From an uncultured SAR86 cluster bacterium (GTDB lineage: Bacteria; Pseudomonadota; Gammaproteobacteria; Magnimaribacterales; D2472): a DNA stretch of 64,000 nt. A model generated the notes under the pieces. That model was not told the DNA's origin. It made no database searches and saw nothing but the letters and a program-made list of their open reading frames with translations. The stretch covers positions 334,797 through 398,796 of the forward strand of contig CAXYBK010000003.1 in assembly GCA_964275345.1 (NCBI GenBank). Direction: 5' to 3'. Shown here piece after piece: positions 3,944 to 50,187 of this stretch. The position numbers and the translations under genes are program-made. Positions within the stretch are counted from its first letter, which is position 1, and the number at the start of each line of letters is the position of its first letter.

Positions 3944-3958
3944 TGAGAATGATTATCA
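3944..3958. promoter_or_regulatory. Fur-box-like 7-1-7 palindrome TGAGAAT-G-ATTATCA
   Basis: 13/14 match to the TGATAAT-N-ATTATCA Fur core. It lies 32-46 nt upstream of the ATG of the Fe(3+)-binding protein gene. Confidence 0.6.
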
Positions 3959-3989: not shown

Positions 3990-4987
3990 ATGAGATTTAC
4001 AAAACTTTTATGTCTTTCGGTTTTACTGGTTTCATGTAGCCAAGAAAAACCCACAGAACAGCTTACAATCTATACATCTAGACAACCTCAACTTATAGAG
4101 CCTTTATTAGAGCAATATAAGGAAAAAACTGGTGTAGAGGTAAGATTACTTTCAGGCAAAGCGCCACAGCTCATGGAAAGAATCGCAGTAGAAGGCACTG
4201 CAACAGAGGCTGATATATTCATGACAGTTGATGCTGGAGTATTATGGCAAGCTGGTAAAAAGGAAATTTTTGAAGAAATAGATTCAAATATTTTAAATAA
4301 AAATATACCAGAACACTTAAGAGATGCTGATGGCAAGTGGTTTGGCTTATCAAAAAGGGCTAGAACTATTGTATATAACTCTGACTTAGTTTCTGCTGAT
4401 GATCTTTCTTCATATAAAGACTTAGCCTATCCAAAATGGGCAAATAAGCTTTGCTTAAGAACTTCAACTAAGGTTTACAACAGATCACTTATAGCAAGCA
4501 TGATTGATGCAGATGGCTATGCGGTACAAAAAATGTAGTTCAAGGCTGGGTAAATAATCTTGCTACCGAAGTTTTTTCAAGTGACACACAGGTCCTAAAA
4601 GCAGTTTCAGCAGGACAATGTGGAGTAACAATAGTAAATACATATTATTTAGCAAGACTTGCTGATGATCCAACATACTCTAATTTAAAATTACATTGGG
4701 CAAATCAGGAGGGCAGAGGAACTCATGTCAACATTTCAGGTGCTGGAGTTGTTAAATATTCTAAAAATAAAGCTGAAGCAATAAAATTATTAGAATGGTT
4801 ATCTTCGAATGAAGCTCAGGAGACTTATGCTGGAGCAAATAAAGAATTTCCAGTTATGGATGGAGTTCCAGTGGGCTCAATTCTTAAAAATTGGGGCTCT
4901 TTTAAAGAAGATCTTATCTTAGTAGAAAAATTAGGATCACTTCAAAAAGAGGCAGTCCTTTTAGCTCAAGAAGCTGAATATAAATAA
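3990..4987 (+). CDS. Fe(3+) ABC-transporter periplasmic binding protein (FbpA/FutA-like), frame broken at an A6 run
   Basis: Lipoprotein-type signal MRFTKLLCLSVLLVSC. ORF 3924..4538 stops at 4536. The +1 frame continues as VQGWVNNLATEVF...GAGVVKYSKNKAEAIKLLEWLSS..EAEYK to 4987. Adding one A to the run at 4528-4533 restores a 332-aa protein. Confidence 0.8.
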
Positions 4988-39817: not shown

Positions 39818-39844
39818 TCATGATAATTATTGAATTATGATCAT
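39818..39844. promoter_or_regulatory. Fur-box-like AT-rich imperfect inverted repeat (TCATGATAATTATTGAATTATGATCAT)
   Basis: Contains TGATAAT-T-ATTGAAT (7/7 + 4/7 to the Fur core) plus an ATTATGATCA arm. It lies in the divergent region between the P19/FetP-like gene and fdh. Confidence 0.35.
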
Positions 39845-47189: not shown

Positions 47190-47942
47190 TTATGCTGATG
47201 CAGATTCTTTAACTGCAACATTCCAGATAACTAAACCAAATAGAATCTTGTTAACAAAGTCAGCAAGATTATAAACAATGTTTAAGTTAGCAGCATATAC
47301 GCCTTCGCCACCCATTAGGTAACCAGCAGCATATCCAGCAGGATATATAGCCCAACCTACGATAATGATCCACATCATAGTGTTGTAAGCAGACATAACA
47401 GCAGGACTTGCTTGATTAACAGCATTTTTTCCTTCTCCAGCCCATAGCTCATAAATCATGTACAACCATGCAGCTACACCAACGATAAACGCAGGTAATA
47501 CAGCCATGATTCCAGCTTCACCCATGTATCCAAATAAAAGCATTACTAGCGAACCGCCAAGTAATTTTTTGAATAATGAAGCAGCAACATTTGTACATGC
47601 AGCAAGGATTAAGTAGAACTCAACCATTAGTAATGGAACAGTTAGCAACCAATCAATATATCTAAATACTGTTGGCGTTTCACCAGTTTCAATCCATACA
47701 CCTCTCATGTATAAGTAGTGCCAAAAAGCAATACCAGTAACAAGACCAGATACAGTTAACGATGTTTTCCACTTTGAGCTTACGTTATCTCTTTCAACAA
47801 AGAAGAAGACAGTTGCTGCTAATAAAGCCGCAGTAACTAGCCAAAATGAAACACCAGTAAGGTCACTAGCTTGAAGATCACCGCCGCTAGCAGCGAATGA
47901 TGGAAGTGCAATAGCACTAGTCAATAATAATAACAATTTCAT
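47190..47942 (-). CDS. proteorhodopsin (green-absorbing type, Leu at the position-105 tuning site)
   Basis: 250 aa with signal peptide and 7 TM helices. Helix C RYIDWLLTVPLLMVEFYL carries the D97 acceptor, L105 and the E108 donor. The retinal Lys is in NLADFVNKILFGL. Near-collinear with the SAR86 EBAC31A08 sequence as I recall it. Confidence 0.97.
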   Translation of the reverse strand: MKLLLLLTSAIALPSFAASGGDLQASDLTGVSFWLVTAALLAATVFFFVERDNVSSKWKTSLTVSGLVTGIAFWHYLYMRGVWIETGETPTVFRYIDWLLTVPLLMVEFYLILAACTNVAASLFKKLLGGSLVMLLFGYMGEAGIMAVLPAFIVGVAAWLYMIYELWAGEGKNAVNQASPAVMSAYNTMMWIIIVGWAIYPAGYAAGYLMGGEGVYAANLNIVYNLADFVNKILFGLVIWNVAVKESASA

Positions 47943-47994
47943 ATACTACCCCCAGTAGTTCAATAAGAAATAACATAATTTCTTAAATATTAGA

Positions 47995-48009
47995 TGAGAA
48001 TGATTCTCA
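47995..48009. promoter_or_regulatory. perfect Fur-box-like 7-1-7 palindrome TGAGAAT-G-ATTCTCA in the proteorhodopsin upstream region
   Basis: 12/14 match to TGATAAT-N-ATTATCA and fully self-complementary. It lies 53-67 nt upstream of the PR ATG, just upstream of a TAATAT -10 candidate. It differs from the site at 3944-3958 by one base. Confidence 0.45.
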
Positions 48010-48169
48010 CCGTAGCTAAGTATAGTAAATCTAATCAATAAACTAAAGTTTTAATGAGATAAAGTATATTTAGCTTATATATAAATTTTATATATATATG
48101 ATATTTACTAGATGCTCTCTGAAATTGTTTTTGTTATATTGTCATGAAACTCATTTGATTAAATAGGAA

Positions 48170-48439
48170 ATGCAATCTAAAAAAGATTCTTACTGGAATG
48201 AAAATATAAGGATATTAATCTTCTTGTTATCAATATGGTTCTTAGTTTCATTTGGATTTGGAATATTGTTATCTGACTGGCTTGATCAATTTCAAATCGG
48301 CGGTTTTAAGCTTGGATTTTGGTTTGCTCAACAAGGCAGTATTTATGTCTTCATAATTTTAATCTTCATTTATATTCATTTGATGAATAAATTAGATAAA
48401 AAATATTTTGGAGAAGAAAACTCTGAGGATAATCAATAG
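48170..48439 (+). CDS. DUF4212-type small membrane subunit of a sodium:solute symporter
   Basis: 89 aa with 2 TM helices. Its stop overlaps the GTG start of the large SSS gene, which is the typical VC_2705-type pair. Confidence 0.7.
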   Translation: MQSKKDSYWNENIRILIFLLSIWFLVSFGFGILLSDWLDQFQIGGFKLGFWFAQQGSIYVFIILIFIYIHLMNKLDKKYFGEENSEDNQ

Positions 48440-50187
48440 TGGATGTTACTCAACTAACCTATCTATTTGTTGGCCTATCATTTGCTTTGTATATTGGAAT
48501 AGCTATTTGGTCTCGAGCAAAATCTACTAATGACTTTTATGTTGCTGGCAAGGGTGTTCACCCTGTTGCTAATGGAATGGCAACAGCAGCAGATTGGATG
48601 TCAGCAGCTTCGTTTATTTCTATGGCTGGACTTATCGCTTTTCTTGGAAAAGATGGTTCTGTTTATTTGATGGGATGGACAGGGGGATATGTTGTTCTTG
48701 CATTATTGTTGGCTCCATACCTTAGAAAATTTGGACAATACACTGTTCCAGATTTTATAGGCGAAAGATATTACTCAAAAACAGCTCGCTTGGTAGCAGT
48801 GGTATGTCTTATTTTTGTATCTTTTACATATGTAGCTGGTCAGATGCGTGGAGTTGGAATTGTTTTCTCTAGATTTTTAGAGGTAGACATTAATATTGGT
48901 GTGATTATTGGAATGGTTATTGTTTTCTTCTATGCAGTACTGGGAGGGATGAAAGGCATAACCTATACTCAGGTTGCTCAATACTGTGTTTTAATTTTTG
49001 CCTATTTAGTTCCAGCTATTTTCATTTCTATTCTTATAACCGGCAATCCTGTTCCTCAATTAGGTTTTGGAGATACTTTAGTAGGTACAGATATATATCT
49101 TCTTGATAAATTAGATCAAGTGACACAAGATTTAGGTTTTAATGCATACACAGAAAATATTAAAAGTAATATAGATATTTTTTGTATTACAGCAGCCTTA
49201 ATGTTCGGCACCGCTGGGTTGCCTCATGTTATTGTTCGATTCTTCACAGTTCCCAGAGTAAGAGATGCAAGAAAATCAGCAGGCTATGCTTTAATTTTTA
49301 TTGCTATTCTTTATACAACTGCTCCCGCTGTAGCAGCGTTCTCAAGAGTAAATTTTATAGACTCAATTCAAGATACAAGTTATGAATCATCGCCTGAATG
49401 GTTTAAAAATTGGGAGAGTGTTGGACTCATAGCGTGGCAAGATAAAAATGCAGATGGAGTTATTCAGTATTCTGCAGGAGAGGCCTTGAAAGGAGGTCGT
49501 CCAAAATATACTTCTGAACGTGGAGAATATGGAGAAAGAAAATTACAAAATGAATCCAATAACTCAAATGTTAATGAAGTTTATATAGACAGAGACATTA
49601 TGGTTCTAGCTAATCCTGAAATTGCAAAATTGCCTGCATGGGTTATAGCTTTAGTTGCAGCTGGCGGACTTGCTGCTGCCCTATCAACTGCTGCTGGTTT
49701 ATTGCTAGTAATATCATCGTCAATCTCACATGATCTTCTTAAAAAAACTTTCAGGCCAGACATTACAGAAAAACAAGAATTATTTTATGCAAGATGTGCA
49801 GCTGCAGTAGCTATTTTTATAGCAGGATTATTTGGGATATATCCACCAGCCTTTGTAGCTCAGGTTGTTGCATTTGCTTTCGGTTTAGCAGCTTCAACTT
49901 TTTTCCCAGTTCTTTTTATGGGCATATTCTCAAAAAGACTTAATAAAGAAGGAGCAATTGCTGGAATGATTTCTGGTTTATTGTTTACACTTACCTATAT
50001 TATTTATTTTAAATTTCTTTATACCAATTTAAACAATGCAGATTATTGGTTTTTATCTATTTCTCCTGAAGGCATAGGTTTTGTAGGAATGATTATTAAT
50101 TTTGCGGTTGCTATTGTTGTTTCTGCTTATACGAAACCTCCTCCAAAAGAGGTCATAGAAATGATAGAAATAATTAGACAGCCTTAA
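48439..50187 (+). CDS. sodium:solute symporter family transporter (VC_2705/ActP-like)
   Basis: 582 aa with about 13-14 TM helices and an SSS signature region (..GGMKGITYTQVAQY..). Confidence 0.85.
   Translation: MDVTQLTYLFVGLSFALYIGIAIWSRAKSTNDFYVAGKGVHPVANGMATAADWMSAASFISMAGLIAFLGKDGSVYLMGWTGGYVVLALLLAPYLRKFGQYTVPDFIGERYYSKTARLVAVVCLIFVSFTYVAGQMRGVGIVFSRFLEVDINIGVIIGMVIVFFYAVLGGMKGITYTQVAQYCVLIFAYLVPAIFISILITGNPVPQLGFGDTLVGTDIYLLDKLDQVTQDLGFNAYTENIKSNIDIFCITAALMFGTAGLPHVIVRFFTVPRVRDARKSAGYALIFIAILYTTAPAVAAFSRVNFIDSIQDTSYESSPEWFKNWESVGLIAWQDKNADGVIQYSAGEALKGGRPKYTSERGEYGERKLQNESNNSNVNEVYIDRDIMVLANPEIAKLPAWVIALVAAGGLAAALSTAAGLLLVISSSISHDLLKKTFRPDITEKQELFYARCAAAVAIFIAGLFGIYPPAFVAQVVAFAFGLAASTFFPVLFMGIFSKRLNKEGAIAGMISGLLFTLTYIIYFKFLYTNLNNADYWFLSISPEGIGFVGMIINFAVAIVVSAYTKPPPKEVIEMIEIIRQP

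Follow-up and report, generated by a model that had tools for sequence, protein, structure and literature searches.

The intergenic region upstream of the proteorhodopsin (PR) gene of this uncultured SAR86 bacterium contains a palindrome that resembles a binding site for the iron regulator Fur, which raises the question whether iron availability controls rhodopsin phototrophy in this organism. SAR86 bacteria are among the most abundant heterotrophs of the surface ocean and PR is among their most expressed genes. The palindrome, TGAGAATGATTCTCA, is located at positions 47995-48009 of the window (the whole stretch of 64,000 nucleotides analysed here) and forms a perfect 7-1-7 inverted repeat, 53-67 nt upstream of the PR ATG. 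On the PR strand it is followed by two nucleotides (TC) and then by the hexamer TAATAT (47992-47987), which reads AAATAT in three members of the genus. Compared with the Fur core TGATAAT-N-ATTATCA, 12 of 14 positions agree; the two deviations (T4 to G and A12 to C) are symmetric and the dyad symmetry is perfect. Re-reading the sequence bore out what the initial annotation had stated about this site, namely the perfect repeat at this distance from the start codon, its position just upstream of TAATAT (the gap is 2 nt) and the 12 agreements, which were the same on recounting. The features of the region are:

47995-48009, no strand assigned: putative Fur-type 7-1-7 operator TGAGAAT-G-ATTCTCA (extended 21-nt site 47992-48012)
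47987-47992, minus strand: -10-like hexamer TAATAT, 2 nt downstream of the operator on the PR strand
47943-47986, minus strand: PR 5′ leader, 96% conserved in the genus (alignment profile)
47190-47942, minus strand: PR gene, 250 aa, the presumed regulated gene (Pfam PF01036 Bac_rhodopsin, E=4e-44)
48019-48024, minus strand: alternative conserved -10-like hexamer TATACT, 9 nt upstream of the operator, in a conserved alignment block; a role as -10 is inference only
48170-48439, plus strand: DUF4212 small subunit, first gene of the divergent operon (Pfam/NCBIfam)
48439-50187, plus strand: VC_2705-family sodium/solute symporter in the divergent operon 48170-50187 (Pfam/NCBIfam)

PR orthologues were found in 52 of 61 related genomes. 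The PR and DUF4212 genes have a divergent intergenic region of 227 nt in common. The same region contains a second perfect 7-1-7 palindrome, ATATAAATTTTATAT, at window positions 48079-48093. It lies inside a TA-rich run (48075-48103), and the TA-repeat block is kept across the genus; this block may be part of the promoter of the symporter operon. The alternative hexamer TATACT reads TATAAT in some genomes. From reading the sequence we infer two hairpins in the PR leader, AAGAAAT-N6-ATTTCTT at 47965-47984 and ACTAC-TGGGG-GTAGT at 47945-47959, the latter over the ribosome-binding G-run.

The source genome, an 81% complete SAR86 genome of 982 kb with 34% G+C, contains 54 kb of intergenic DNA. The initial annotation had proposed that a Fur position weight matrix (PWM) be compared with the intergenic background. 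We trained a palindromised PWM of 21 nt on three intergenic sites, those at a TonB-dependent receptor gene (TBDR), at a ferric-iron solute-binding protein gene (Fe SBP) and in the intergenic region next to katG (katG-IG), and left the PR site out. With this matrix the PR site scores 20.7 bits. It is the top non-training position in the 982-kb genome and ranks fourth overall; the runner-up anywhere reaches 16.6 bits and lies in coding sequence, and the next intergenic position reaches 13.3 bits. Under intergenic base composition the probability of a score of at least 20.6 is 9e-8 per position, which corresponds to 0.005 such sites expected by chance across all intergenic DNA; for the PR intergenic region alone the figure is 2e-5. 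The earlier caution that palindromes are frequent in AT-rich DNA holds for symmetry alone, as perfect 7-1-7 palindromes are indeed common (149 genome-wide, 26 of them in intergenic DNA), but it does not extend to the Fur-type score, which is far beyond chance.

The degenerate pattern TGAKAATNATTMTCA gave a similarly short list. It occurs at five places in the genome, one within a gene and four intergenic, the latter being at PR, at the binding-protein gene, at the TonB-dependent receptor gene (C3:70473) and in the gap between a peptidase S46 gene and katG (C3:63663). All nine genus genomes contain two to eight matches each, and the reversed pattern, which served as a control, has no match in any of the nine. 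The matches are syntenic in the genus, with the katG-IG and TBDR sites approximately 7 kb and the Fe SBP and PR sites about 40-44 kb apart. Several further candidates were discarded. The coding hit to TGAKAATNATTMTCA (C3:827343) is a run of DNDYH codons in a TonB-receptor-like ORF and was judged to be due to chance, as were coding hits to the strict pattern (L032, L037 and L211). An apparent fifth conserved site in other genus genomes was in fact the Fe SBP site, whose centre base differs there. A Fur-like half-site at window positions 39818-39844, flanked by a P19-like gene and fdh, reached no more than 2.3 bits when scored with the genus Fur matrix and was therefore left out of the regulon.

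The company of the PR site in this list includes undoubted iron genes. One of them lies in the window, together with its site:

3944-3958, no strand assigned: second putative Fur-type operator, TGAGAAT-G-ATTATCA (TGAGAATGATTATCA), PWM score 27.2 bits
3990-4987, plus strand: periplasmic solute-binding protein gene, ferric-iron type (Pfam SBP_bac_8/1/6)

As already pointed out in the initial annotation, this second site precedes a gene for an Fe(3+)-binding protein and is one base different from the PR site; we locate it 31 nt upstream of the ATG (3990). It is kept in genus genomes upstream of an intact SBP of 332 aa. According to Dupont et al. (PMC3358033), SBP importers number only two in SAR86, and ferric iron is the substrate of one. 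The gene copy in the window carries a one-base frameshift near 4535 (4525-4545), while the orthologues in L040 and L041 are intact with 332 aa; the copy is either a pseudogene or the result of a sequencing error.

The deviations of the PR site from the consensus are shared by iron genes as well. The same G4/C12 deviations are present in half-sites at the Fe SBP, katG-IG, TBDR and FTR1 sites, three of which belong to undoubted iron genes (Fe SBP, the iron-type TonB receptor and the FTR1 permease), and this variant half-site, TGAGAAT, makes up half of all half-sites in the genus. Both the binding-protein gene and the katG-adjacent element are preceded by hybrid sites, in which a TGATAAT arm is paired with a TGAGAAT arm. 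Moreover, the exact 15-mer TGAGAATGATTCTCA was found 23 nt upstream of an FTR1-family iron permease gene in FRAM18_bin297 (G063; L210:1500-1514). It is also the second of two tandem boxes in front of an orthologous siderophore-type TonB receptor gene in FRAM18_bin313 (G061) and ERR599090_bin.2; in FRAM18_bin313 the two boxes are 29 nt apart (L217:1499-1543).

A cognate regulator is encoded in the source genome. Genus genomes contain at most one gene of the Fur family (PF01475), and the protein of the source genome matches the NCBIfam Fur equivalog NF006999 with 171.5 bits (cut-off 146). Its best PDB match is Fur of P. aeruginosa (1MZB, E=6e-51), with which the recognition-helix segment GLATVYRVLTQFE is identical. 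The SAR86 Fur lacks the CxxC cysteines of E. coli Fur, as does P. aeruginosa Fur. The fur gene (L001:1058-1890; C3:490934-491766) is located divergently to a bamE/omlA-like lipoprotein gene and upstream of grpE, the same arrangement as in Pseudomonas.

Conservation of the palindrome was analysed in an alignment of seven genus genomes with PR proteins 81-98% identical; an eighth genome (G007) was retrieved separately. The close relatives of the source genome are AG-313-D02, FRAM18_bin311 and MED-G78, and MAGs designated "SAR86B" are also near. The palindrome is kept at equal distance to the ATG in all eight genus genomes that have the PR locus. In the seven-genome alignment its 14 specified positions are 99% conserved, the centre base varies among C, G and T in the genus genomes, and the least conserved stretch of the region consists of the nine nucleotides directly upstream of the palindrome. 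Since the PR leader is about as conserved as the palindrome (96% versus 99%), conservation by itself is not specific. The pattern of variation is more informative: invariant arms around a free centre base mark a protein-binding site with dyad symmetry, as opposed to an RNA stem. A few imperfect natural variants exist, with two of the eight genus genomes and one metagenome variant departing from the palindrome at one position; the final base is T in G004, G007 and L150, and a metagenome contig with a PR 98% identical (L130) has an A-to-G change in the right arm.

These data also bear on the possibility that the palindrome is something else: it could serve a regulator other than Fur, act as an RNA hairpin or terminator, or be an AT-rich palindrome that arose by chance. 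A simple scan does call it terminator-like on the minus strand, with an 8-bp stem, but in the genus no minus-strand gene reads into it, a centre of one nucleotide is impossible as an RNA loop, the tail is not U-rich and the arms are invariant instead of covarying. The terminator reading was rejected on these grounds. That perfect 7-1-7 palindromes are frequent in the intergenic DNA would allow for coincidence, against which stand the chance expectation given above and the identical 15-mer in front of iron permease and iron receptor genes. As to another regulator, the genome also encodes MntR, a DtxR-family protein; however, the motif is the canonical Fur consensus and not a DtxR/MntR box. Taken together, an identity other than a Fur site has been largely refuted already and is hardly tenable. 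We consider it highly likely that the palindrome is an operator of the Fur regulon, an assignment made from sequence comparison in the absence of binding data.

The site is not a general property of SAR86. In 23 genomes from at least 13 other SAR86 genera no box was found upstream of PR (the maximum within approximately 300 nt is 7.9 bits), showing that the trait is lineage-specific. Two further lineages do have a box. The first comprises FRAM18_bin313, ERR599090_bin.2 and three metagenome contigs with PR proteins 83-92% identical (loci L053, L057 and L132-134); here the box, (T/C)GAGAATCATTCTCA, is located 100 nt upstream of PR, just past a co-directional TonB receptor gene. The second comprises FRAM18_bin297 and four contigs (loci L085 and L192-196) with PR about 75% identical, and the box TGATAAT-N-ATTCTC(A/G) lies approximately 140 nt upstream of PR, with a divergent tRNA or DUF4149 gene beyond it. 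In some sister contigs of this lineage the box is degenerate or deleted. Conservation upstream of PR in relatives, on which the initial annotation had made its proposal depend, is therefore met in eight of eight genus genomes and in two additional SAR86 lineages.

The box in the genus lies within the shared 227-nt divergent region, 161 nt from the ATG of the DUF4212 operon, which makes this operon a possible secondary target, and divergent promoters can be served by Fur boxes. Fur might thus bind here to regulate the DUF4212 and sodium/solute symporter operon, or both transcription units, and not PR specifically. Yet the box abuts the -10-like hexamer on the PR side and itself forms the 5′ edge of the conserved PR leader, and the two other lineages keep it at PR beside a TonB receptor, tRNA or DUF4149 gene. 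In FRAM18_bin313 strict boxes occur only at PR, at the TonB receptor gene and as one coding hit. Control of the symporter operon, or of both units and not PR specifically, is improbable in our estimation: the upstream neighbour changes and the box stays with PR, which makes PR the likeliest target.

How Fur would act on PR depends on the promoter. The TonB-receptor, binding-protein and katG-adjacent promoters have the -10 element TATCAT inside the right half-site, preceded at 16-17 nt by TTGTAA or TTGCTT. The corresponding right half-site at PR, TCTCAT, is a poor -10. On the PR strand the promoter scan gave no sigma-70 match, and neither the scan nor reading of the sequence revealed a good -35 in front of TAATAT. 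TAATAT is nevertheless the likely -10 of the PR promoter, although no transcription-start data are available. With TAATAT as -10, the operator would span approximately -29 to -15 and the mRNA would start at the conserved 7-bp hairpin (47965-47984). If TATACT were the -10, the operator would come to lie at about +1 to +20, a position that would be repressive too.

From this arrangement we propose the following mechanism. When iron is sufficient, Fe(II)-Fur dimers would occupy the 7-1-7 site in the spacer directly upstream of the TAATAT -10, and RNA polymerase would be excluded from the PR promoter. Under iron scarcity the site would be vacated by Fur, and the cell would produce PR at the same time as its iron-uptake proteins. 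As an iron-free pump driven by light, PR would generate a proton-motive force at times when the respiratory chain, rich in iron (Fe-S/haem), is limited, and this proton-motive force is what would drive TonB-dependent uptake. SAR86 leans heavily on TonB-dependent uptake (PMC3358033).

The sign of regulation is inferred, since no good -35 is present and transcription starts are unmapped. Fur could bind without iron repression, as an activator, as an anti-silencing protein or at a weak or largely neutral site, in which case no increase in PR would be expected when iron is limiting. Such a role would be compatible with the expression of PR, which normally ranks with the highest in SAR86. In the two further lineages the best -35 candidates are found about 10-70 nt downstream of the box. 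Activators also use such a position; simple occlusion is less obvious there and the mechanism less clear. In the genus of the window, on the other hand, the box is located between the -35 and -10 positions of the putative TAATAT promoter, the classical position for a repressor, and the same module of half-site and -10 is present at the katG-adjacent Fur promoter: the 20-nt string AATCATTCTCATCTAATATT, which consists of an operator half and the hexamer, recurs on the other strand of that site. Field data are of limited help. Fe addition alters the expression of SAR86 iron TonB-dependent transporters (PMC11069385), and in the portion of the California Current differential-expression tables of that study that was available SAR86 is mentioned 79 times, with no Fe-responsive or other rhodopsin. 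The same portion contains no SAR86B-type genes either and hence does not test the source lineage. Binding without iron repression is in our view unlikely. We favour iron-dependent repression of PR through the palindrome as the probable reading, which agrees with the derepression under iron limitation suggested in the initial annotation and is backed by sequence and comparative genomics, with the reservation that Fur binding, promoter assignment, sign and physiology are all inferred.

By inference, the single Fur serves a very small iron regulon with about four conserved operators per genome, located in front of the genes for the siderophore-type TonB receptor and the ferric-iron binding protein, an RNA-like intergenic element beside katG, and PR; binding to these operators has not been demonstrated. 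The katG-adjacent element is a block of approximately 125 nt between the peptidase S46 gene and katG (L038:1345-1515; C3:63507-63677, outside the window), with about 95% conservation across five genomes of the genus. Read on the minus strand, it begins right after a TTGTAA-N17-TATCAT promoter that is overlapped by the Fur box TGATAATCATTCTCA. It is predicted to fold into a closed Y shape (z=-2.8) with one compensatory pair. An Rfam search of the region around this Fur box returned no match beyond a spurious miRNA (E=0.04). Judged from its sequence and predicted fold alone, the block is a candidate for a Fur-controlled small RNA that might have a role like RyhB or PrrF; its transcription has not been shown.

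Two further observations concern this neighbourhood. In FRAM18_bin311 (G003; L036:1501-1590, C1:75525 onward) a copy of the PR leader, TCTAATATTTAAGAAATTATGTTATTTCTTATTGAACTACTGGGGGTAGTATA, follows the katG-adjacent Fur box, where it replaces the terminator hairpin and runs antisense into the 3′ end of katG. This copy could be the result of a recombination between two Fur-box promoters or an assembly artefact. Next to the element, a metal and oxidative-stress cluster (C3:63740-70997, likewise outside the window) brings together katG, the nickel superoxide dismutase gene sodN and the protease for its maturation, MntR, a DoxX-like membrane protein and the TonB receptor gene with the Fur box. The presence of a nickel SOD in place of an iron SOD fits an iron-sparing lifestyle.

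In its form the PR element is an ordinary Fur box; what is new is the target. The E. coli Fur box is a 19-bp sequence, GATAATGATAATCATTATC, and the 7-1-7 version is TGATAAT-N-ATTATCA (Baichoo & Helmann 2002, cited in PMC3090418). With the classical boxes of Gammaproteobacteria and the Bacillus 7-1-7 model the PR site shares the 7-1-7 architecture, the agreement with the consensus at 12 of 14 positions and, if TAATAT is the -10, the location at the promoter core. The motif likewise occurs at TonB receptor, ferric SBP and FTR1 promoters, and the cognate Fur is an orthodox, Pseudomonas-type protein similar to 1MZB. It differs from the classical box in having G/C at positions 4/12 in both half-sites.

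Iron control of a bacterial PR has been considered before. PR of Vibrio is under stationary-phase control. In Photobacterium angustum S14, PR reportedly followed growth phase and not iron, a result ascribed to Koedooder et al. 2020; this work on the strain under Fe limitation, which is cited in PMC11833320, asks the same question and counts against our reading for SAR86. For SAR11, an oligotroph that carries PR, Steindler et al. 2011 (PMC3090418) put forward an "energy regulon" in which light or energy metabolism is tied to a Fur-family regulator. The SAR11 genome, however, yielded no classical Fur box, and its motifs are non-canonical and not located at PR, whereas the SAR86 box is canonical and sits at the putative PR promoter. 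As late as 2025, what PR contributes to bacterial Fe metabolism was described as unclear (PMC11833320). In our full-text literature searches a Fur box at a bacterial PR gene was nowhere reported; only the SAR11 speculation came up, in line with the remark in the initial annotation that iron control of a bacterial PR through Fur was not known to be established. The closest functional parallel comes from diatoms such as Pseudo-nitzschia, whose proton-pumping rhodopsins have been tied to iron limitation (PMC10523587 and work cited there). The logic is the same, with an iron-free light-driven proton pump that offsets iron-costly energy conversion under scarcity, but the diatom proteins are eukaryotic, localised to the vacuole and regulated in a way unrelated to Fur, whereas the SAR86 link would be a bacterial cis-operator.

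A wider interpretation can be offered only tentatively, and we regard it as possible without being able to call it probable: in SAR86B-type bacteria PR would belong to the core of a minimal Fur regulon with about four operators, together with the siderophore-type TonB receptor, the ferric-iron binding protein and a hitherto undescribed katG-adjacent small RNA, iron scarcity, in addition to light or carbon, would set the level of rhodopsin phototrophy, and this link would have been kept or re-created in at least three lineages. If so, its presence in at least three lineages with differing neighbourhoods would point to selection for a coupling of iron stress and TonB-dependent uptake with the proton-motive force that light provides. 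If the PR promoter does carry a canonical Fur operator, this would be the first connection at the cis-regulatory level between iron and rhodopsin phototrophy in bacteria, and would parallel the use of rhodopsins by diatoms under iron limitation. The box allows an open ecological question to be addressed directly, both by simple assays and in Fe-addition metatranscriptomes that already exist. The predictions are that the PR transcript level of box-bearing lineages could be used as a marker of iron stress, and that these lineages would capture more light-driven energy in iron-poor waters, which would bear on carbon-use efficiency in high-nutrient, low-chlorophyll (HNLC) regions.
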